Below the pieces are notes generated by a model, which had not been told where the DNA came from, did not search any database, and saw nothing but the letters and a program-made list of their open reading frames with translations. From a virus: DNA of 64,000 bases. Within the stretch, counting starts at the first letter, position 1, and every line of letters starts with the position of its first letter. Shown here piece after piece: positions 666 to 46,464 of this stretch. Location of the stretch: the IMG/VR virus record IMGVR_UViG_3300030060_004838, positions 1 through 64,000 of that record; one strand, written 5' to 3'. A program made the translations under genes and the position numbers.

Positions 666-1199
666 TTATCTCATATCAGCAGGTTTTTGAGCAGATGAAG
701 CAGCAACTCTTGTAGTCATTAAATACTTTCTAAGTTTATTTGCCGCTTCTTGTAATGATGCTAAAAGAGCCTTACCTTCACTTGTACTCATAGGGTCAGC
801 CTTTTTCTCATCATCTCCACCTGATAAAGCACCAACCGCTAATGCTGGTAATATTTTTTCTTGACTTTCATTCATAAATTCATCTACTACTTCATCAATA
901 TCTTCTTTAGAAATAGAACGACCTGTAAAATCTCTTGATTCATTTCTTGTTTTAATAATACCTTTAGAAATATTTTGTACAATAGGTCTTGCAGTTAATC
1001 TAACTACATCTACTTCTTTACCTTTCTTTTGACTTGGAGTAGTAGGTTTTTCATTAGGGTCAATATTACTACCTAAATGATTAGTAATCAAATTTGCTAA
1101 TTCTACTAACTGTGTTATTACTGCCGCTGTTCTATCATCTTCATGTGAATGAACCGCAAAGTCCATTGTTAAATCTTGTTTTGCTTCCCAATCCATCAT
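666..1199 (-). CDS. Hypothetical head-module protein
   Basis: 177-aa ORF in the minus-strand operon, translationally coupled to neighbours. Confidence 0.7.
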   Translation of the reverse strand: MMDWEAKQDLTMDFAVHSHEDDRTAAVITQLVELANLITNHLGSNIDPNEKPTTPSQKKGKEVDVVRLTARPIVQNISKGIIKTRNESRDFTGRSISKEDIDEVVDEFMNESQEKILPALAVGALSGGDDEKKADPMSTSEGKALLASLQEAANKLRKYLMTTRVAASSAQKPADMR

Positions 1200-1426
1200 T
1201 GTTCACCTGCCATTTTTACTACTAATTCATCTATTTCCGACCAATCCATTTTAGCGATTGTATCAGCACTTGGTACTCTACTTGCTGTTTGAATTGATGG
1301 TTTTATTCCTTCTACCTTTACGAGTCCTGCTTTTAGTAATACATTATCAGCATTATATACAGTCGTTTCTAAAGTCTTTACTCTCTCTACTAATTCTTTT
1401 AATAATAGTGTTAATTCTTCACTCAT
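1196..1426 (-). CDS. Small coiled-coil hypothetical protein
   Basis: 76-aa ORF with ATGA overlaps on both sides. Confidence 0.7.
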   Translation of the reverse strand: MSEELTLLLKELVERVKTLETTVYNADNVLLKAGLVKVEGIKPSIQTASRVPSADTIAKMDWSEIDELVVKMAGEQ

Positions 1427-3639
1427 TTTTCTTCACCTAATTTTGGATATACCATTTCTCTTAATTGTTTATATAATTTTTCGTAGTCCTTTCTTAATCT
1501 TGTTGCTAATTTTACTACTTTAAGATTTTCATCTTCTAATTTAAGAACCTTCTTATTTAGTTTTTTATCTCCCTTGACAACACCTAAAGATTTCAACACT
1601 CTAACAAGTTCCGACAACTTAAGGAAATCATGCCCAAAGTATTCTGTGGGGTCTGCTATATTTAAAATTGCCTTAACTTTCTTTCTTTGTTTTGCATTGA
1701 GAGATTCTAAAATTAAACCTACATCTTCTTTAATAATAATGTTATCTTCTTCACCTAATACTACCAATAAATTATCAAGAGATTTCTTTGTTTCTCTTTG
1801 ATAGGTGGGTAATTTTCTTGGTGTTGAAGGTGCTATTGATTGAACCTTTGCTGGTTTTAGATATTCTACTTCTACTAAAGCATCTTCGTCTTTTAGTAGT
1901 TTTGCTAATATTTTACTTGATGGGTACATTTGCATAAAAGTGCTAATAATATAAGATAAAACAGTTTCTCCTTCTATTTTTTCACTAACTGTATCTATAA
2001 TACTTTTTTCTATTGCTTTTAATTCTTGTGCATTTCTTCCTGCATATTTTTCACTTAAAGACCTGCCTCTAACAATATCAATCAAATCTTCTATAACTTC
2101 TGTTCTTTCTTCCATAGTTCTGTATTTTCTCATTAATTTACCAAAAGCAGGACCTAATCTAAAATCAATTGTATTTGTTTCTGTATCTACTACAATATTT
2201 GATTTAATCGCTCTAACTAATTTAGGTAAAGTATCTTGTTGGAATGTTTGTAGTCTTAAGAAGTCATTTGCAACAGTATCACCTTTTGATTGCATTATTC
2301 CATCTCTTAATCCCTGTGCAAAATAAGCAAAATTTTCAGGGTCTTCGGGTTTTCCTAAAGCATAATTTCTTTCCCAAACATTTCTATAAAGAGATTCGAG
2401 AGTTCCTAATGGTTTTAATTTAGGATATTCAGGCAATTGACCTGCTACCTTTTTGATAAATTCAGTCTTTTTATCTTCTGATAATTTTTCCCATTTATCT
2501 ACATCACCCTTGAAACCTGCTTTACCAACCCAATACATAGGAATATCTCTAAGAATAACACTATTAAACCAAGTAGGATTTCTCAAATCTAATTTTTCAA
2601 AGCCTATAAAGTAATCTGTTCCTTTGATTTTTAATCTTTCATCACCACCAAATCTAACAGATAAAGATTTTTTAAGTATCTTTGATTGTTGTCCTACTTT
2701 GATACCTTCTGTTTTTGCTTGTGTAGCATCAGGAGTAATTTTTGTTGAACGACCTTGCCTCTTTTGTTTTTGTTTTTGTTCACTTTGTAATTGTAATAAA
2801 ATTTCTTTTAGTTTGGTTCTGTCTGTATTAGGTATTTTAATATCAGAATCATTTAGATATTTTTCTAATCTTAAAATAGTTTTATCATTTGCTGTATATA
2901 AACTACCTACTAAATTAATAAGATTTATCAAATTAGAATATCTTTCAGCATCTTTTCCAGCAGCACTTTTCATCCATTCTTCTACAAGTTTTTGGCTTTC
3001 GGGTCTTTCTTTTCGTTCCTTTTGCCTCTTAACTTCTTCTCTTTGTAAATATTTTTTATATTTTTCACTTGCCACACGACTAATTTCTTGTCGTCTTTTT
3101 TGTTCGGCTTCTCTTTGAGGTCTTCTTTCTTCATTTAGTCGTCTTGTTTCTTCCATTCGTGAATCAAAAAGTTTCTCTCTATATTCTTTAACCTGTTCTA
3201 CAACATCATTTAAATTTTCAGCACCATGATTTTTTTCAAGATATTCAAAAATTAAATTAGATTCCATTTCACCTTCAGGGTATCTGTCGGCTAATTGTGT
3301 ACTTAAAATTGTATTAACATTTTTTATTTCAGATTCTTTTTGTCTTAAATCATTTTCATATGTATTATATGATTTGCTTCTATCAAGTGGATATTTTGCT
3401 TCAATAGCATCTATTTTTTTATTATAAGTTTTATTACCCCAATCAAATCTTTTATCTCTTGTATTACCAAATTGAATAATTTCCATTACTCTCTTTTTTC
3501 TTTTCTCAACCTCGTCTATCATAGTTTTTATTTCATCTTCTGATAACGCCTTAATAAGATAATCACTATCTACTAAAGCGTAGTAAAGTCTTGTGTAAAG
3601 ACTTTTTCGTAAATTATCTATTAAGATATGAGATTGCAT
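1423..3639 (-). CDS. Large charged coiled-coil protein, putative virion internal/scaffold-like protein
   Basis: 738 aa, downstream of portal; many [ILM]xK[SA] motifs (NLRKS, YLIKA, WMKSA, ILKKS, IEKSI). Confidence 0.6.
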   Translation of the reverse strand: MQSHILIDNLRKSLYTRLYYALVDSDYLIKALSEDEIKTMIDEVEKRKKRVMEIIQFGNTRDKRFDWGNKTYNKKIDAIEAKYPLDRSKSYNTYENDLRQKESEIKNVNTILSTQLADRYPEGEMESNLIFEYLEKNHGAENLNDVVEQVKEYREKLFDSRMEETRRLNEERRPQREAEQKRRQEISRVASEKYKKYLQREEVKRQKERKERPESQKLVEEWMKSAAGKDAERYSNLINLINLVGSLYTANDKTILRLEKYLNDSDIKIPNTDRTKLKEILLQLQSEQKQKQKRQGRSTKITPDATQAKTEGIKVGQQSKILKKSLSVRFGGDERLKIKGTDYFIGFEKLDLRNPTWFNSVILRDIPMYWVGKAGFKGDVDKWEKLSEDKKTEFIKKVAGQLPEYPKLKPLGTLESLYRNVWERNYALGKPEDPENFAYFAQGLRDGIMQSKGDTVANDFLRLQTFQQDTLPKLVRAIKSNIVVDTETNTIDFRLGPAFGKLMRKYRTMEERTEVIEDLIDIVRGRSLSEKYAGRNAQELKAIEKSIIDTVSEKIEGETVLSYIISTFMQMYPSSKILAKLLKDEDALVEVEYLKPAKVQSIAPSTPRKLPTYQRETKKSLDNLLVVLGEEDNIIIKEDVGLILESLNAKQRKKVKAILNIADPTEYFGHDFLKLSELVRVLKSLGVVKGDKKLNKKVLKLEDENLKVVKLATRLRKDYEKLYKQLREMVYPKLGEEK

Positions 3640-3641
3640 AC

Positions 3642-3866
3642 TTAAACTTCCTTCATTTTCTTATTTATTTTTGGTCCACCTGTAATAAAACCTGGAATTG
3701 TTTGTTCATTAGTTCCTTTATTTACAGGGGGATGTTCTTGAACACCTGCTGGAATTGTATTAACTGTTTCCTTTGGTGTTTTAGGTTCTTGATTTACCTT
3801 TTTTCTAAGGGCATCAATTTTTGCTCTTGCTTGTTCTAACTTTCTATTAATTATATCATTATTCAT
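3642..3866 (-). CDS. Hypothetical protein
   Basis: Likely start MNNDIINRK just after the portal stop; the longer ORF-track start overlaps the portal. Confidence 0.55.
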   Translation of the reverse strand: MNNDIINRKLEQARAKIDALRKKVNQEPKTPKETVNTIPAGVQEHPPVNKGTNEQTIPGFITGGPKINKKMKEV

Positions 3867-3867
3867 T

Positions 3868-5511
3868 TTAACCAACTCGTCTTTCTGTTCTTCTATCAAC
3901 ATTATTATTTGCTGCTTCTTTAGGTAATCCTGTATTTCTTTTAGGTGGTCCAACACTCATAGATGGTTTATTTCTTGTTGCTGGTGCTTTTGCGCCACCT
4001 TGTTGTCCTAATAATTGTTGTTCTTGTAATTGACCTAATTGACTTGCATCTATATCTGTTCCCGCATATGGGTCAGTTTCTAATTTTTTATTGGATTTCA
4101 TATTACCCATTTCACCTTCTTCTTTTTTAGGTGGTGGTTTAGAGTATATGAAATTACCATCTTCATCCATATCTACTTCAAATCCTAAGTTTTTAATTTG
4201 AGTAGCAAGGTTGATTTCAATTTCTCTCCTTCTTAATTCTGCTACATTGTCTTCTTCTTCTGAACGCAGTAATTTTAAATCCCAATCTGTAATACCAAAC
4301 TGTCTTAAAAGGAATGGGAATAAGTATTGATTATATACATTTTGTGCTAATTCTACTGAACGATTAGTTACAAGTATTTGCATACCTTCGTTATTTAGAC
4401 CACCGCTTGTAGAAGTATCTCCTTGAAATATTTTACTTACTCCGTAGAAAGCACCAATCCTATCTCTTAAATCATCCTTTACATTTATGTAATCCATTTC
4501 TTTTAGAGTATTCATAAACTGTACCCATTCTATACTTCCCTTATTTCCACCTTCAGTTTCAATACCCATAATAGGAATATAGTGTGGGTCTTTTTCTAAT
4601 TTTTCTTTAACACCTTTCCAATACTTTACAAGTGATTCCATGTTATTTGTTTGTACTGCAAGAATACCTCTTGGTGCTCTTGCTTTTGTATAAGATGTAT
4701 TGATATAATTTTCCATAGCAATCAATGTAGTAATATGACTCCATAATGTTAGTATTGGTGAAAAGCCATATAATCTTGATGGGTTATATTTACTCAAATG
4801 CATAACTTCTCCTTCTACAAAGTATTGGTCTTTTCCATGCACTCTATTAATATATACGACAGGTTGTAATTTACTACCACAATGAGGACATGGATTAGTA
4901 CAGTCATCATCATAAATATCTCTATGTGTTATACAAGTATAATGTGCTTCGCCTCTATCTCCTTCTTCATCAACATCAATATACATTGTTAATGGGTCGC
5001 CTCTATAAACTTCTTTAATTTTGTGTAGGGCTACATTACCTTGATTATCTAAATAATATTCTTTAACTAATACTAAGTAAGCATCATCAGCAATATTTAA
5101 ATCAGATTCTAATTCTTTTAATACATCAATAAATTTTTGTTCTGAACGATTTACATAACCCTCAAAGAATTTTTTAGCATAAAGCATTTGTTCGTTAGAT
5201 GGACTTCTTAATTTTTTACTACCACAATTTCTACAAACATCTGTTTCCTTTTCATGTGTTGTTCCACAATCTTCACAGATTTTATAGAATGCTTTTTCCC
5301 ACTCATAGCCTCTCCTGAATATTTCTGTTTTTAATTGAGTAATACAAGTTCTAACAATTGTAGATTGATTTGCTACATCGTATAATACAGGTCCAATAAT
5401 ATGTTGAACATTTCTTTTTTCCTGTATTCCTAAATTATAAACTTCTTTAGCAAGTGGTGTTGGAGTTTTTCTCCTAACAAACTTTCCTAAATAATCTCTA
5501 AGACCCATCAA
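3868..5511 (-). CDS. Portal protein with two zinc-ribbon insertions
   Basis: 547 aa near terL; portal-like segments (DLNIADDAY, YGFSPI, IGAFYGVS); CEDCG..CRNCG and CITH..CPHCG inserts. Confidence 0.85.
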   Translation of the reverse strand: MMGLRDYLGKFVRRKTPTPLAKEVYNLGIQEKRNVQHIIGPVLYDVANQSTIVRTCITQLKTEIFRRGYEWEKAFYKICEDCGTTHEKETDVCRNCGSKKLRSPSNEQMLYAKKFFEGYVNRSEQKFIDVLKELESDLNIADDAYLVLVKEYYLDNQGNVALHKIKEVYRGDPLTMYIDVDEEGDRGEAHYTCITHRDIYDDDCTNPCPHCGSKLQPVVYINRVHGKDQYFVEGEVMHLSKYNPSRLYGFSPILTLWSHITTLIAMENYINTSYTKARAPRGILAVQTNNMESLVKYWKGVKEKLEKDPHYIPIMGIETEGGNKGSIEWVQFMNTLKEMDYINVKDDLRDRIGAFYGVSKIFQGDTSTSGGLNNEGMQILVTNRSVELAQNVYNQYLFPFLLRQFGITDWDLKLLRSEEEDNVAELRRREIEINLATQIKNLGFEVDMDEDGNFIYSKPPPKKEEGEMGNMKSNKKLETDPYAGTDIDASQLGQLQEQQLLGQQGGAKAPATRNKPSMSVGPPKRNTGLPKEAANNNVDRRTERRVG

Positions 5512-31083: not shown

Positions 31084-31446
31084 TTAATTGTACATATTAA
31101 AATTAGAATCGTCATCTTTCTTTGATTTTGACATCATTTCTTTCATTTGTTTAACAACATCCTTTTCAAACTGTGAATTTGTATCACTTTCTTCATGTAT
31201 ATCTGCAAAATAGTTAATTTTCTTGTTATATTCTCGTATTATACTAACAAATTCCTCACGCAAGTCTTCATAAAACTGTTGTATCTGTTCTTTAAATTTA
31301 TCAGGTACAGGTGCATGTTTAGAATAGAATTGATAGAAATCATGCCAATTAGCGAAATGATTCTCGAGGTTTTTCATGATATTTTCTAAGTCTTTGTTAG
31401 ATTTGTCTTCTTTTTCGTTATTGTTAAAGTAAAAGTTGAATACCAT
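31084..31446 (-). CDS. Hypothetical protein
   Basis: 120-aa ORF; its start codon lies inside a degenerate ACCATGTGGT site. Confidence 0.55.
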   Translation of the reverse strand: MVFNFYFNNNEKEDKSNKDLENIMKNLENHFANWHDFYQFYSKHAPVPDKFKEQIQQFYEDLREEFVSIIREYNKKINYFADIHEESDTNSQFEKDVVKQMKEMMSKSKKDDDSNFNMYN

Positions 31447-31668
31447 GTGGTTATCCTCATTACAAGTAGGATAAGTAGAGGGTTATAACTGTATGTATTG
31501 GATTATTTGTATCATTTTGTAGGATATGCGAATTTACTTTAACATAATGTGCAAAAAATGTATTTTTATGGTGCTACAAAGGCGTTTTTATGTAGAGGGT
31601 GTTTTTAATGTCGCCCACAAAAAAGAATTAAAATCAATTAAAAAAAATTTAGGAACCTTCAAAGTAGA

Positions 31669-31678
31669 ACCATATGGA
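31669..31678. repeat. ACCATATGG palindrome, site 1
   Basis: ACCATATGGA preceded by CTTCAAAGTAGA. Confidence 0.85.
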
Positions 31679-31749
31679 TATAGAATGAATCTGAAACTAA
31701 AAAGAACCCTCCGCCATGAGAGATGATGACGAATGAACCTGCACACAGA

Positions 31750-31778
31750 ACCATATGGATTGAAACTTTGTGGCATCC
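31750..31778. repeat. ACCATATGG palindrome, site 2, with right hairpin
   Basis: ACCATATGGA, then GGAT-tgaaactttgtggc-ATCC. Confidence 0.85.
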
Positions 31779-31817
31779 TTAGTAATAGAACGAACACCTA
31801 TTATATGGTGAATTGTA

Positions 31818-32060
31818 ATGGTAAAACAACAATGCAAACTAACAGGCAAGATGGTAGAACGCAAAGAGATTAACCAAAATGGTTATTCAAAACTGCATTA
31901 TAGCGAGTATCAGAAAATGAGAAACTACGCTAAGAAGCAATTGAATCAAACATTTGGTATCGCTGATTATAGAAAAGTCATGGGCTTTGAAGTAGTTAGT
32001 CGCAAATCTCTATCAGAAGAATTGAAAACAAAAGTGAGAGTGTATTTCCATGACGAATGA
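31818..32060 (+). CDS. Hypothetical early-region protein
   Basis: 80 aa, TATTATATGGTGA leader. Confidence 0.65.
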   Translation: MVKQQCKLTGKMVERKEINQNGYSKLHYSEYQKMRNYAKKQLNQTFGIADYRKVMGFEVVSRKSLSEELKTKVRVYFHDE

Positions 32061-32266
32061 AGGACTTTAGTAAATTAACATTTGATGCTATGATTTCAGC
32101 ATTAATGAATGTAGATGACCAATTTCAGCAATTTGATGACATTTCTATTAATGTCAAGCAAGGCGGCATTCAATTAAGAATGAAGAAGAATTGGAAGGGC
32201 GTTTCTATGAGTTTGAAAAACGAGGAACGACTAAGAAGGCATGAAGAAAGCATGTCGGAATACTGA
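32057..32266 (+). CDS. Hypothetical early-region protein
   Basis: 69 aa, ATGA-coupled. Confidence 0.6.
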   Translation: MKDFSKLTFDAMISALMNVDDQFQQFDDISINVKQGGIQLRMKKNWKGVSMSLKNEERLRRHEESMSEY

Positions 32267-32292
32267 TTAAAATCAGGTAAGTTTGGAAAATT

Positions 32293-32337
32293 GAGGGATT
32301 TTGGGGCTTTTCGGAGTCCTGAAATCTCTCTTTTTTT
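32293..32337 (+). terminator. Hairpin plus T-tract terminator
   Basis: GAGGGATTTTGGGGCTT-TTCG-GAGTCCTGAAATCTCTC followed by T7. Confidence 0.65.
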
Positions 32338-32375
32338 AGGGTGCGTCATTTCCACAAATTTACAATTTAATACTT

Positions 32376-32596
32376 ACCATATGGTAGGCGATAGCACATT
32401 CTACCGCAGGAGGGATAATAAGAATGTTTGATTGTGATGAGTGATGTTAGTTTATTTTCTTATTACCATATGGTTCATGCGTTAGCATATGATGAACCGC
32501 AGGGGGGATAACAGAATGTTCTTTGACGATGACGAGTGATTACATCAGTTAAGAACATTTTAATCTGTTACCATATGGTAATGCTTTGCAATTACC
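32376..32596. repeat. Tandem structured repeat containing ACCATATGGT sites 3-5
   Basis: Cores at 32376, 32465 and 32570; two ~90-105-nt units with covarying hairpins and a shared CCGCAGG.GGGATAA..AGAATGTT linker. Confidence 0.85.
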
Positions 32597-32672
32597 TTAG
32601 ATTTTTCAAAAATGGTATTTTTTATTTTCCTGCATTGGAAAAAAATACCAAAAAACCAAATATATCAAGATA

Positions 32673-32855
32673 CTAAAAATGGAAAGAAACTCCCCAATAA
32701 TGTTCTATTGCGCCTCTAAATTTATCTTCATTAAATCTCTCATTATCCTCTTTGAAAAATTGACAAAACGAATTTATCGTATATTCATCTATTTTCAAAT
32801 CTCCAAATAAACGAGCCACTATTTCATAATGTCTTTGTTGAAATTTAGGATTCAT
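32673..32855 (-). CDS. Small hypothetical protein
   Basis: 60 aa; FQQRHYEIVA..F..DNERFNEDKF looks like a common small phage protein motif. Confidence 0.6.
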   Translation of the reverse strand: MNPKFQQRHYEIVARLFGDLKIDEYTINSFCQFFKEDNERFNEDKFRGAIEHYWGVSFHF

Positions 32856-33636: not shown

Positions 33637-33676
33637 TTCAAAGTAGCCTTACCATATGGTTCTGCTTTGAAGAACC
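33637..33676. repeat. ACCATATGGT site 6
   Basis: Core 33651-33660; CTTCAAAG..CTTTGAAG dyad; GGTTCT-gctttga-AGAACC hairpin. Confidence 0.85.
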
Positions 33677-33863
33677 TTAAAAAATTAAAAAAAATAAAAT
33701 TTTAAAAAATATTTTTTTGGTGAAGGAAAAAATAATTAAAAACCTTGATTTTTTTTGACAAGAAAAATTCTAAAAACTTGTGGCAATTTTTTGTGTGATT
33801 GCCAAATCAATATCTACGGGCTTCTCAAAATATTTGATGTATCTAAAGATTCAATCTTCATCT

Positions 33864-34499
33864 TCAATTAGAAGATTCATCAGATTCACCTTCGTCATTA
33901 TCAGATTCTGTTGCATTTTCTTCTGATGGTGGTGGCGCAATTGTCATTCCATCTTCAAGAGAAAAGTTTCCATCCCAACGACCATCATTGAAATATTTTG
34001 TAAATCTTTGATTTACTGCTACTCCACGACCATCTCCGAAATCTAAACCGTTCTCAAATGGTGAACCACCAACCTCTTTATTTCTATCAGAAATTACAGA
34101 TGTCATTTGGATAATCGGATTTGAATTCCAAAATTCTGCGTATGCTTCTGCAACCAATTTCTTTAGAGTTTTCAAACTTGCTTGAGCGTGTGCTGGCAAA
34201 TTTGATTCTTTTCCAATTGAAACAGGCCAATCCATAGCCAATTTTCCATCTGTTTTTTCTACTGTCCAATCTCGACCTTCAATGAGGATTTGATTCCATA
34301 AATTCTTCCGCTTTTCTGCATTTCTGTTTCCTCTACGGATATTCATGTTAATCAATTCAACAGCATCAATAATATCATCTGAAGAATTCAAAAATTCTTG
34401 ATTACCTTCAAGGCTCAAGAAATCCTCAATTCTTCCAATTCTCTTATTCCATGCTTCATCTGTCATTGACAAATCTTTTTCTTTCTTTTCTTTCGGCAT
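33864..34499 (-). CDS. Hypothetical protein, paralog of 34656-35135
   Basis: 211 aa with an acidic tail; collinear motifs shared with the divergent neighbour. Confidence 0.7.
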   Translation of the reverse strand: MPKEKKEKDLSMTDEAWNKRIGRIEDFLSLEGNQEFLNSSDDIIDAVELINMNIRRGNRNAEKRKNLWNQILIEGRDWTVEKTDGKLAMDWPVSIGKESNLPAHAQASLKTLKKLVAEAYAEFWNSNPIIQMTSVISDRNKEVGGSPFENGLDFGDGRGVAVNQRFTKYFNDGRWDGNFSLEDGMTIAPPPSEENATESDNDEGESDESSN

Positions 34500-34655: not shown

Positions 34656-35135
34656 ATGAGTAAAGAAAAATACGAAACTGATGAGGGCTATGAAGCATTT
34701 GTAGCACCTCTTGAAGAATATATGAAGAAGAACAAAGCCAAAGATGCTGAAATGACAGATGCCTATGAGTATGCTGTGAACACCATCAAAAGAGGTCGAA
34801 AGTTTGCTAACAAAAGAAAAAGATGTTTTGACAGTCTGTATGATGAGTGGAACCATCTTAATTTTGAAGGTTGGCCTTTGAAGAAGTTAGATGATGAAAC
34901 CACTAAGGAAATTCAAAAGATGGCTGATGATATGGACACACCAAATGAAGATTATTGGAATGCCCTACCTATCAAACCTACATTTAAGGTCAAAGGTAAG
35001 GAATACATTGATGCTGATGGCAAATCCTTTGCTAAGAGGATGAATGAATCACTTGTGAAGAAATGGACTGTTCACGCCAAAGAGAACGGTTCACTTTGGA
35101 AGTCCCAAGATGATATACCCACCCGAGAGGCTTGA
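34656..35135 (+). CDS. Hypothetical protein, paralog of 33864-34499
   Basis: 159 aa, TATTATGTGGTGA leader. Confidence 0.7.
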   Translation: MSKEKYETDEGYEAFVAPLEEYMKKNKAKDAEMTDAYEYAVNTIKRGRKFANKRKRCFDSLYDEWNHLNFEGWPLKKLDDETTKEIQKMADDMDTPNEDYWNALPIKPTFKVKGKEYIDADGKSFAKRMNESLVKKWTVHAKENGSLWKSQDDIPTREA

Positions 35136-35290
35136 ATATGTTTGACGATGATGAATGATTGACAAAAATTGACCCCTAATTTTGCCCATACCCCATGCTG
35201 TTTTGGTGATTCAGCACAAAAAAAATCACCACCCTTCGGGGTTTCTTACCACTATTCAAAGAATCGTTTTTACAATGTTTATTGTTAGTA

Positions 35291-35315
35291 ACCATATGGT
35301 TGTAATTTTTACACC
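35291..35315. repeat. ACCATATGGT site 8
   Basis: Core 35291-35300; GG(T)TGTAA-ttt-TTACACC hairpin. Confidence 0.8.
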
Positions 35316-35449
35316 CTGAAAAAAATAAAAAAAATAAAAAAGGTGGTAGAGAAATCATTTAAGATTTTTTTAAAATATCGGGGATGATATTTATGCATGA
35401 TAATATGATACAACAAACAAAGAACCAATTAAGAAACTCTACCATGAGT

Positions 35450-35800
35450 TATTTGTTGTAAAAGGGTGTGGGCAGGATTAGGTCGGTTAAACCATAACTT
35501 ACCTGCAAATTTTCACGGAAACACCTGCTTTTATTCTTGATTTGCAAATAAAATCGGCCGCTACTTCTAACTTCCCCACTTGAGCGTTTGTTCTCAAATG
35601 TTCCCACAGACAATTCGCTAAAACTGTTCACGCTATTAAATCGTTCACAAATGCAGCCTTTGATTATTACGCCACTCCTTCTCGATGGAAAGATTAATTG
35701 CATTTATCCGCTAAGAAAATCTCGGGAGGAATACCTTAAAGTGTTCAATCTCTTTTTCAGTCACCACAATATCTTGACCCGCTAAAGCCAAGATGTAGAA
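35450..35800 (-). ncRNA. Candidate structured non-coding RNA
   Basis: GC-enriched, no convincing ORF, several hairpins, minus-strand TATAAA at 35810-35815. Confidence 0.35.
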
Positions 35801-35822
35801 TATGATTGATTTATAGCCGTAA

Positions 35823-35865
35823 GGTCATCACAAAGAGATTACCATATGGTTCTAAAACTTGTAGA
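35823..35865. repeat. ACCATATGGT site 9
   Basis: Core 35841-35850; GGTcATC-acaaaga-GATtACC left hairpin and TCTA..TAGA right stem. Confidence 0.85.
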
Positions 35866-35878
35866 TATTCGAGGCTAT

Positions 35879-36433
35879 CTTCATATGAAGGGGTCGGCAG
35901 GAGAGGGCTACCCCTTATAAGTGGGTCGGGGTCGGATTGGGTGTCAATAATTGACAGAATGTAGCAGATTATTTCAGATAATTTGTTTTATTTATGTAAT
36001 AATAACCAAAACAATATATAAACTATATCTAATAGATTCAATATATTATTATCTCTTTATTCTTCTTTATCTTTATTCAGTTAATAGAAGTAAGTCATTT
36101 TGTATTAGATAATTTTCCCGATGGGATTTCCCATCTTTTCCCATTCCTATGAGAAAACATTTTGTTTTAGATAATTATATTATCTTAATCATTATGTTTA
36201 TTTTAGTATCTTTTCCCCTTTTCCCTTTCCTTCCTTACTTACTTACCTTACTTCTCTCTCTATTTATGTATATATTTGTGTATATATGTGAGAGGGGTAA
36301 AGTGTGGGAAAAGTGGGATTATGGGAAAAGGTATCAAAATGTTTAAGAAAAAGCAATTATCTTATGCAAAATATTATCTCATACATTTTGTAGCATGGGA
36401 TAATGGGAAAAGCCTACATTTTGTATTAGATAA
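35879..36433. other. Candidate replication origin
   Basis: GGGTCGG repeats, AT-rich tract, three CATTTTGT[A/T]TTAGATAA direct repeats (36096, 36158, 36417), opposed TTTCCC/GGGAAA boxes, located at the strand switch. Confidence 0.5.
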
Positions 36434-36446
36434 AGTTTTGAATTAA

Positions 36447-45342: not shown

Positions 45343-45913
45343 TTTACCTGTTTGTTCAGTTTGTGGTTGTATTCAGGCATATAGAATATATGAGGTAAGT
45401 GATATACCTAAAAATGAAAAAACATTTAGCACAGACTTAATGATGCTTATGAATGAGTTTGATATAGAAGATAAAGATGAAGTTATCAAAAATGATAAAT
45501 ATATTTCTTATACTAATATATATTATACTTATGATTTAGCGGAGAGGGCTTGTGCTATCTTATACTATACTATGAGGGATTTAAATAAACCTGCTATCAT
45601 GTTGGATTATTGTAAATTTTTGGGATGCAAAACAAGTAGAGTAAGTAGACTTGCAAAAAGAATAGCAAGACATTATTCAAATAGTGGAGTGTTTGGTATA
45701 AATGATATTGACGAGTTTTTGGATAATATGGAAATCAATAGTAAAGAAATTAGTGAAGCGTGTAAAGCGTGGAATGAGCAACAAACCTTGACAAGAGGAA
45801 TAATTGCGGCATATGTATATGAACACACAACATATACTCAAAAACAAGTGTGTGAAAAATTTGGAGTTAGTTTGCCAAGATTAAAAAGAAACTTAAGGAA
45901 AGTGAGAAAATGA
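45290..45913 (+). CDS. tfb: Transcription factor B (TFB/TFIIB)-like protein
   Basis: N-terminal CxxC..VCSVCG Zn ribbon, cyclin-like repeats, C-terminal HTH TQKQVCEKFGVS. Confidence 0.75.
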   Translation: MPCVNCQAKHLNLNKEINLPVCSVCGCIQAYRIYEVSDIPKNEKTFSTDLMMLMNEFDIEDKDEVIKNDKYISYTNIYYTYDLAERACAILYYTMRDLNKPAIMLDYCKFLGCKTSRVSRLAKRIARHYSNSGVFGINDIDEFLDNMEINSKEISEACKAWNEQQTLTRGIIAAYVYEHTTYTQKQVCEKFGVSLPRLKRNLRKVRK

Positions 45914-46464
45914 AAAAGAGAGATGTATTGATAATAGGCGCAGGTGGAATTGGAAGTTTTCTAATACCATTGTTGGATAAAGTAGGATTGTATGACATAA
46001 CAGTTTATGACCCTGATATTGTAGAGGAAAAGAATCTAACATATCAAAACTTTACCAAAGTAGACTTAGAAAAGAAAAAGGTAGATGCTATGAGTGAAAG
46101 ATATAATATTGATGCTCAACCATATCCTGTTCTAACAGCAGGACAATTAAAGGGATATGATTTGGTAGTATGTTGTGCTGATAATTTAGATATTAGAAGA
46201 ACAATGTATAATTCAAATGTTAAATGGTTAGACTTAAGAGCACAAGCAAGAAACGCTGCTATGATTTCACATTTAGAAGACCCGAAATTATATACTGTTT
46301 TTACAAGTGGACCAGATGGTTCTTTTTCTTGTCAAGGAGAATGGGATGGAAAACCTGAAGGGATTAATTTTATGCAAGTTGTAATTGCAGGTTATGGCGC
46401 ACAATGGATTCAAAGATTCTTTACAGGCGACCATGTAGAAAAACACTTTAAAATTAATGGGTGA
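45910..46464 (+). CDS. ThiF/MoeB/E1-family adenylyltransferase
   Basis: IIGAGGIGS, YDPDIVEEKNL.YQ, KKVDA, VCCADN..R, putative catalytic SCQ. Confidence 0.88.
   Translation: MKKRDVLIIGAGGIGSFLIPLLDKVGLYDITVYDPDIVEEKNLTYQNFTKVDLEKKKVDAMSERYNIDAQPYPVLTAGQLKGYDLVVCCADNLDIRRTMYNSNVKWLDLRAQARNAAMISHLEDPKLYTVFTSGPDGSFSCQGEWDGKPEGINFMQVVIAGYGAQWIQRFFTGDHVEKHFKING

Follow-up and report, generated by a model that had tools for sequence, protein, structure and literature searches.

In a 64,000-nt window of the 95,975-bp viral record IMGVR_UViG_3300030060_004838 (all positions given here are those of the window), the stretch 32376-32596 contains three exact copies of a core word, TTACCATATGGT, at 32374, 32463, and 32568, which enclose two units of 89 and 105 nt. 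We consider it reasonably probable that these units are minimal movable gene cassettes, each giving rise to a structured mini-mRNA that encodes a polyacidic micropeptide with a hydrophobic head. The two units share one anatomy, which runs from the core through a first hairpin (stem 1) closed by GGU/ACC and a strong, single-stranded GGAGG-like ribosome-binding site, CCGCAGGAGG, to a second hairpin (stem 2) with a frame of 6-7 codons inside it. The original prediction, made from the letters of the sequence, had described tandem two-hairpin units and offered two readings of them, namely an array of small structured RNAs or minimal cassettes made up of a site, a ribosome-binding site, and a minigene. 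Its description was accurate, as the stems, the linker, and the stem 2 coordinates were all recovered by a repeat finder.

In unit 1, stem 1 (32383-32405, + strand) pairs GGTAG with CTACC (32383-32387/32401-32405) and carries an apical GC-GATA-GC mini-helix and a 3' internal loop, ACAUU. A Shine-Dalgarno (SD) sequence, GGAGGG (32409-32414, +), is followed 9 nt further on by the ATG of a micro-open reading frame (micro-ORF; 32424-32444, +, ATG to TGA) encoding MFDCDE. Stem 2 (32413-32467, +) pairs TAATAAGAA with TTCTTATTA (32416-32424/32457-32465) plus GG/CC; it begins within the SD, spans the start codon, and is closed by the TTACC of core 2 (32463-32474), which is common to both units. Unit 2 repeats this layout, with stem 1 (32472-32498, +) formed by GGTTCAT/ATGAACC (32472-32478/32492-32498) under an apical GC-GTTA-GC, an SD-like GGGGGG (32502-32507, +; GGAGGG in its orthologs), an ATG 8 nt further on, and a micro-ORF encoding MFFDDDE (32516-32539, +, ATG to TGA). 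Its stem 2 (32509-32570, +; also from the repeat finder) consists of TAACAGA/TCTGTTA plus AATGTTCTT/AAGAACATT (32515-32523/32551-32559), wraps the micro-ORF, and masks the AUG.

In both units stem 1 thus runs from the core's GGT to ACC and stem 2 closes on the TTACC of the next core, and the repeat finder also returned the linker ACCGCAGGrGGGATAA in each. Core 1 (32374-32385) contains a 10-bp palindrome, ACCATATGGT, and core 3 (32568-32579) has the full 14-bp palindrome, TTACCATATGGTAA. The array is preceded immediately by a terminator-like hairpin of 17 pairs with a T-run (32293-32340, +) that ends the upstream + strand genes, and is completed by a closing hairpin, GGTAAT..ATTACC with a GCTTTG loop (32577-32596, +), which is the generic right-hand hairpin of the intergenic motif of this family. 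Tandem Repeats Finder did not report the array, because its two units are strongly diverged old paralogs and not the outcome of a recent duplication.

Micro-frames under peptide-level selection

Related viral contigs and loci, referred to here by L-numbers, were collected by pattern scans. A scan of viral contigs with a 15-mer from the linker gave 35 matches, of which 34 were chance and only L009, a close relative, was real. L009 has three units (MFDDCE, MFDDDE, and MFFDDDE) at the place corresponding to the two of the window. Three further scans, two of viral contigs and one of metagenome contigs, brought the combined yield to about 90 loci, mostly from TARA Oceans and other marine samples, so that the cassette is present in dozens of related ocean viruses. 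As the pattern used for the metagenome contigs named only core + GCAGGAGG + core, that sample is blind to the frame. A nucleotide search against cultured phages found no match, and a loose-pattern scan of prokaryote genomes returned chance matches only. The strict-pattern scan of prokaryote genomes retrieved three contigs of metagenome-assembled genomes from unrelated phyla, which we take to be mis-binned virus and therefore no clue to the host.

Among the 60 distinct frame-blind segments, 55 have a start codon 7-10 nt after GGAGG followed by an acidic frame of 5-16 codons, a combination present in 4 of 6000 shuffles; the five exceptions are four unrelated sequences and one frame lengthened through loss of its stop. 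Altogether, 97 distinct units encode 52 peptides of 6-13 amino acids (aa). They start with ATG (59), GTG (27), or TTG (11), and stop with TGA (60), TAA (36), or TAG (1). The peptides follow a common pattern of Met, one to five mostly bulky residues (Phe, Tyr, Ile, Leu), and three to six Asp/Glu, with an occasional Cys, Asn, Ser, or Thr (e.g., MFDDDE, MFNEEDE, MFYDDDE, MICEDDECDCE, MKYTSDEDDE, and MINPDDDIDHDGE).

The unit frames are under selection at the level of the peptide. In the last four codons, positions 1 and 2 are GA with hardly any exception and position 3 varies freely; both AGC/AGT and TCA/TCC are used for Ser; and the variants of MINPDDDIDHDGE, like several other variants, differ by synonymous changes only. 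It is these three features that identify the amino acids as the object of selection. Indels within the frames are of whole codons, and residues other than the acidic ones recur as well, including a conserved Phe/Tyr, a recurrent Cys, and a DxDxDG-like variant. The peptides of the units are kept, with synonymous changes, in the orthologs in L009 and L051: MFFDDDE of unit 2 is the same in both with a synonymous change, and the L009 ortholog of unit 1 encodes MFDDCE. The SD sequences of the micro-frames are also stronger than those of the ordinary genes of this virus.

The proposal of a minimal cassette of site, ribosome-binding site, and minigene is therefore supported by the conservation of ribosome-binding site, start, frame, stop, and peptide type over the 97 distinct units. 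The motif TGAYGAGTGAT, which had been noticed in the apical region of stem 2, is indeed present in both units; its reading as an apical motif was incomplete, as it is the 3' end of the SD-led frame.

Two hairpins on the strand of the frame

Judged from pairing and covariation among the relatives, both hairpins are real structures of the sense-strand RNA. Folding of the array of the window gave z = -3.0 for the + strand RNA and z = -5.9 for the - strand, values that are inflated because the palindromic cores pair with one another. Single-sequence folds of 68 non-redundant units nearly all consist of stem 1, a free SD, and stem 2. The latter has three layers, which are an outer helix of the GGUGA/UUACC type that takes up the final Gs of the SD, a middle helix, and an inner helix in which the AUG and first codons pair with the sequence after the stop. 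RNAalifold on MAFFT alignments, the check suggested with the original prediction, paired the cores together or picked up stem 1 incompletely, and the structure was recovered with a covariance model that had been built from 12 units. A search with this model retrieved 71 units in the relatives and, in this virus, only the two units of the array.

In the alignment of the 71 units, 93.6% of cells are standard pairs, a share that falls to 72% on shuffling and does not exceed 55% when the partners are slid. Compensatory double changes are seen at 16 of the 17 pairs, and covariation scores 0.50 as compared to at most 0.08 in slid controls. All of these counts lean high because the alignment is model-fitted and the units are related by descent. 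In an independent comparison of each unit's own arms with crossed arms, none of 500 permutations reached the observed value for stem 1, the inner stem 2, or the outer stem 2. The earlier observation that pairing is kept while sequence diverges, through compensatory changes in both stems, is thus confirmed in the units of the relatives. Inside the stems, G-U outnumbers A-C (17:4 in stem 1 and 41:26 in stem 2), and at one position of stem 2 G-U is the commonest pair, which points to RNA of the micro-frame strand. The earlier idea of an array of small structured RNAs therefore holds in that both hairpins covary as sense-strand structures, and falls short in that hairpin 2 wraps a frame under selection at the amino-acid level.

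The tip of stem 1 is a conserved GC-GNNA-GC mini-helix followed by AnAWU, and this loop motif is nearly exclusive to the units (77 of its 82 occurrences). A CAnAWT hexamer also lies in this loop, at a distance of 15-18 bp from the preceding xxACCA and of 8-10 bp from the GGAGG that follows. Neither inspection by eye nor the scan showed a consistent -35/-10 or TATA spacing near the hairpins. At the gathering threshold, Rfam models matched only a tRNA in the whole window, and no match below E = 2 was obtained for 31600-32700. We rejected an archaeal C/D-box small RNA, since both units lack a box D (CUGA) close to their 3' ends, the only UGAUGA is that of the Asp codons in mid-unit, and the best Rfam C/D match scores 17 bits against a threshold of 48 bits. 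A hammerhead reading of UGAUGAG was likewise rejected, as the required C3 is missing.

Core turnover, neighboring genes, and the virus

Exact copies of TTACCATATGGT in the 95,975-bp record all lie between 32.3 and 35.9 kb, and cores with up to two mismatches number 25 against 8.65 expected, a count that none of 100 shuffles reached. The core is a perfect palindrome of 10-14 bp, confined to a 4.5-kb strand-switch region where it flanks small genes. It forms the center of a bigger dyad-symmetric intergenic motif that is common among the relatives, AAGGU-stem-(CAAAG loop)-stem-ACC AUAU GGU-stem-(CUUUG loop)-stem-ACCUUA. One core copy of this generic double-hairpin form, with CAAAG and CTTTG loops, lies at 33649-33660, and more start at 31669, 31750, 34587, 35289, and 35839. 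In the units, stem 1 takes the place of the right hairpin of the motif, and stem 2 that of the left hairpin of the next copy.

Comparison of copy numbers between relatives shows that array size varies from one to three units (62 arrays of one, 21 of two, and three of three). By blastn, the window and L009 part at 31790, 32542/32461, and 35305/35841, all of which coincide with cores; the differences include an additional unit in L009 and a gene replaced after the core at 31750. The orientation of the units relative to their neighbors also varies, with both orientations found even between the same two genes, and their commonest location is the divergent region between the homologs of 33864-34499 and 31084-31446. 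These differences in copy number and orientation, with breakpoints at cores, further support the cassette proposal. Neither Phage_integrase nor Resolvase domains (tyrosine and serine recombinases, respectively) were found in the 96-kb, possibly incomplete, record. The simplest mechanism is therefore homologous recombination at these palindromes, as has been proposed for the promoter-early stem-loops (PeSLs) of T4-type phages. Integron gene cassettes (attC) were considered and rejected, given that the record, which may be incomplete, has no tyrosine recombinase and that units occur in both orientations.

Some other core-bounded sequences were noted on the way. Between the cores at 35289 and 35839, the window has about 540 bp (35305-35841) without a counterpart in L009, where a single chimeric core stands; this represents a cassette indel. 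Right after the core at 35839 is a GC-rich, hairpin-prone element (35870-35940) in AT-rich, gene-poor surroundings (35160-36440); a similar sequence follows the matching core in L009 and a unit in L242, and it is a candidate non-coding RNA. In the more distant relative L095 (IMGVR_UViG_3300030102_003270, 1183-5021), arrays are bounded by CCATATGG and their units are 94-145 nt long, with one interval of 211 nt. These lack the acidic frame, share an ACGCTWAGT motif, and may be other mini-cassettes or small RNAs. L044, L046, L055, and L056 contain another class of small core-bounded units with a GAGGGTGGG-type motif.

Micro-frames of the same type are also found at gene ends. A third micro-ORF, again encoding MFDDDE, lies at 35138-35158 (+), 2 nt past the stop of gene 34656-35135, with an SD of GAGAGG; its L009 ortholog overlaps the stop as TAATG and has two synonymous changes only, while the flanks have diverged. 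A candidate fourth, MNLLIEDED (33851-33880, -), has its own SD (AGGTGA) and is read in another frame over the last codons of gene 33864-34499(-). These two genes are paralogs, and an SD, an ATG, and a hydrophobic-then-acidic frame are present at 17 of 19 homologous gene ends of their family. We rejected a +1 frameshift as the reading of these frames, because they share no slippery site and their SD and ATG are conserved. The family is predicted to be all-helical (mean predicted local distance difference test, pLDDT, of 80), with a conserved basic stretch RRGNR..KRKN, and searches of PHROG/Pfam, PDB sequences, and Foldseek found no informative match. In most relatives the units adjoin genes of this family, which suggests that the acidic peptide and the helical protein may work together. 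Elsewhere, at 31818-32060, the window has an 80-aa gene that ends ...FHDE and overlaps the next start (ATGA). Its L009 counterpart (reverse strand, ~1660-1700 of the flipped locus) is a 13-codon frame, MMNKPIVMRDDDE, with the same overlap and an acidic tail.

A 40-nt block at 31699-31739 (-), tentatively referred to as the "T element", is a terminator-like hairpin with two G-U pairs and U5, and sits upstream of gene 31084-31446(-) or its homologs. It is nearly invariant across nine relatives and is present in one subclade only. Its 5' arm is antisense to Asp-Asp-Asp-Glu-stop codons, i.e., (GAY)n-TGA. Its sequence would suit a terminator, an attenuator, or an antisense partner.

The virus is probably a magrovirus, i.e., a marine archaeal virus. 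The best cultured matches of its polymerase are haloarchaeal tailed viruses (24% identity), its record encodes a clamp-loader-like AAA ATPase, a ligase, and a ThiF-like protein, and its relatives are marine (TARA and others) and 87-96 kb long. Magroviruses are tailed marine viruses of Marine Group II archaea, ~65-100 kb in size, with a family B DNA polymerase, a clamp loader, an ATP-dependent ligase, and a halovirus-like morphogenetic module (PMC5434244). Two results count against this assignment, as the MCM and thermosome Pfam models were not found and the best matches of the terminase are Bacteroides phages; a Bacteroidota host is itself argued against by the SD-like motifs of the ordinary genes. 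The CheckV completeness of 51% for the record may be too low, as the lengths of related contigs group at 87-96 kb and the genes agree with those of magroviruses of ~65-100 kb. Three magrovirus papers mention no promoter (PMC5434244, PMC10160649, PMC11706807), and in the latter two there is no mention of palindromes, intergenic elements, or hairpins.

Mechanism, alternatives, and precedents

If the units are cassettes for micropeptides, each would be made on the + strand as, or be processed into, a mini-mRNA with a protective hairpin at either end. Stem 2 would gate initiation, with the ribosome loading during RNA synthesis or once stem 2 opens, and the hydrophobic-headed polyacidic product would act in trans. 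Acidic runs at the N-terminus destabilize ribosomes or make them pause, an effect that bulky residues offset (bioRxiv 10.1101/2021.02.02.429294; PMC11282234); the bulky second residue may thus let so short an acidic chain reach completion. The likeliest partner of the peptide would be the co-occurring basic all-helical family (33864-34499, 34656-35135), with its own 3' ends bearing a like micro-frame, and the ribosome would be an alternative target. The palindromic core and its flanking GGU...ACC hairpins would punctuate transcripts and provide homology for recombination, through which cassettes could be inserted, deleted, duplicated, or inverted, giving the tandem pair seen here. The core may also double as a promoter element, which would be compatible with this reading.

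Several points weigh against it. Stem 2 masks the end of the SD and the AUG, so that the frame could seldom be translated, and the search by eye and by scan found no promoter for the array, which has a terminator-like hairpin on one side and a convergent operon on the other. Transcription of the units, the ends of their RNA, and translation are all inferred. The covariation alignment is fitted to its own model, and counts from kin units are not independent events. The (GAN)n pattern could in part be a motif of the RNA, and the link between peptide and helical family comes from gene neighborhood only, the fold of the family being without a match.

Of the alternatives, the one that survives best, and is still unlikely in our view, is a cis-acting leader or attenuator, in which the success of reading the acidic run, itself hard to translate and sensitive to the state of the ribosome, Mg2+, or a factor, would decide the formation of stem 2 and downstream structures and hence the expression of the downstream gene or operon, as mgtL does for mgtA. 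Pausing-based acidic leader peptides are known (PMC11282234), and 40 of 60 arrays have a gene of their own strand next downstream, with 21 arrays heading a divergent pair. Units most often sit immediately ahead of the 31084-31446 homolog, the first gene of a long structural/cargo operon, and in L252, L293, and L307 only, a unit is directly followed, on the same strand, by the T element, whose 5' arm is complementary to the micro-frame. However, in the window, as in 20 of the 60 arrays, the next downstream gene is on the opposite strand, which leaves nothing to regulate in cis. A leader also fits poorly with tandem units in either orientation between the same two genes, and with frames at gene 3' ends that yield the same type of peptide; selection on residues beyond acidity suggests that the product matters.

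A second alternative, which we hold to be quite unlikely, is a minigene whose translation is itself the purpose, such that host ribosomes or Asp/Glu tRNAs are sequestered by ribosome destabilization or peptidyl-tRNA drop-off, in the style of lambda bar. The strength of the SD and the several copies in each genome would suit it, the risk of abortive translation is highest for N-terminal acidic runs (bioRxiv 10.1101/2021.02.02.429294), and minigene toxicity mediated by peptidyl-tRNA is established in Escherichia coli (PMC2490762). However, bulky residues at positions 2-3 counteract the destabilization (bioRxiv 10.1101/2021.02.02.429294), stem 2 restricts initiation, and the Cys, Ser/Thr, and DxDxDG-like variants are hard to account for by drop-off alone. 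Moreover, these effects are known outside archaea, and the host is probably archaeal.

It is distinctly improbable that the units are non-coding structured small RNAs, with an incidental frame whose GA-rich stretch is an RNA motif, possibly one that pairs with the T element of the leftward operon's leader. Strong covariation of both hairpins on the sense strand and the burial of the start codon in stem 2 would be expected of such RNAs. The 5' arm of the T element pairs with 14 of 15 micro-frame bases as read from the sequence, and the duplex energies are better than those of most shuffles, not strikingly so (1-21 of 300 shuffles reach them). On the other hand, the start position holds only ATG, GTG, or TTG and the end only stops, indels are of whole codons, Ser appears in both codon families, and synonymous changes are free, which would degrade a site of RNA pairing. 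The T element is limited to one subclade, and there is neither a match to an Rfam family nor, for want of box D, a C/D-box reading. Finally, it is very improbable that the elements act as DNA only, with the cores serving a dimeric protein as operator, promoter, or origin repeats and the hairpins and frames as by-products of repeat turnover in the strand-switch region: the confinement of the palindromic core to that region, the CAnAWT hexamer set in the stem 1 loop, and the intergenic repeats of the archaeal tailed virus HF2, which are promoters (PMC8707807), all speak for it, but binding to double-stranded DNA leaves unexplained the arms that change sequence yet stay complementary, the one-strand excess of G-U over A-C, and the codon-level conservation, and the spacer from xxACCA to the hexamer is not fixed (15-18).

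The cassette reading has precedents for its parts. The PeSLs of T4-type phages likewise are short conserved stem-loop motifs between small variable genes, with borders of indels and swaps at the motif between close relatives, for which recombination between copies was proposed (PMC2839356, PMC4122927). There is no sequence relation between the two, and the unit here is a double hairpin with dyad symmetry around ACCATATGGT, hence usable in either orientation. The PeSL motif combines a terminator stem-loop, an early sigma-70 promoter, and an SD, whereas here there are hairpins with only putative promoter or terminator activity, in a virus whose host is probably archaeal, and a cargo shrunk to a frame of 6-7 codons that is absent from the PeSL papers. 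Halovirus HF2, an archaeal tailed virus, likewise has conserved intergenic repeats that carry promoters; these are AT-rich elements of 58 and 29 bp and not hairpin pairs, and no micro-frames are reported for them (PMC8707807). The polymerase of this virus has the DNA polymerase of HF2 among its closest cultured relatives.

The lambda bar minigene has two codons and no conserved peptide, in contrast to the 6-13 codons, amino-acid selection, covarying hairpin, and maintenance across many viruses seen here. Like the units, bar and synthetic minigenes are very short SD-led frames, borne by a virus or a plasmid, whose translation itself can matter (PMC2490762). MgtL similarly is a short frame that is rich in acidic residues after its start and lies within an alternative RNA structure (PMC11282234). 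It always precedes the gene it controls, whereas the units are often in tandem, in either orientation, or before genes of the opposite strand; a leader-type position, upstream of a gene on the same strand, is not found in the window and occurs in about two thirds of the relatives. The microcin C gene mccA has seven codons and encodes a functional heptapeptide that ends in Asn, beside the E1-like adenylating enzyme MccB. Nearly all of the 52 peptides here end in Glu or Asp instead, the exceptions being MFEEEDN (Asn) and MFEDEDDWRI (Ile). We rejected a microcin C-like system, as the only ThiF-like gene (45910-46464, 184 aa) is short and lies 13 kb away, and the peptide ends differ. A type I toxin-antitoxin system was also rejected, as the peptides are acidic and of 6-13 aa, and an antisense-like element is present in one subclade only. 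Literature searches returned only cloning primers for the core word and no description of these units. While the parts thus have precedents in PeSLs, HF2 repeats, minigenes, acidic leaders, and mccA, no precedent was found for their combination or for the peptide family.

As a broader and more tentative possibility, the genes of 6-13 codons may be among the smallest conserved viral genes, borne by abundant and probably archaeal ocean viruses (magroviruses) and present both as free-standing dual-function RNA cassettes and as gene-end overlaps, and may form a layer of regulation or host takeover that works through peptides or RNAs (the T element) on the helical protein, the ribosome, or divalent metals. 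Frames of this length are skipped by gene finders and small-protein surveys, and a conserved multi-copy family of them, spread through a widespread group of ocean viruses, would expose that blind spot. The peptides (MFDDDE, MFFDDDE, and others) can be synthesized and, together with an RNA of ~95 nt, offer test material for the translation and binding of short acidic chains. The units also extend a PeSL-like cassette-shuffling motif beyond the T4-type phages, with a dyad symmetry that allows the cassettes to be inverted. If the host is archaeal, they would give a rare handle on expression signals in viruses of the uncultured Marine Group II archaea.

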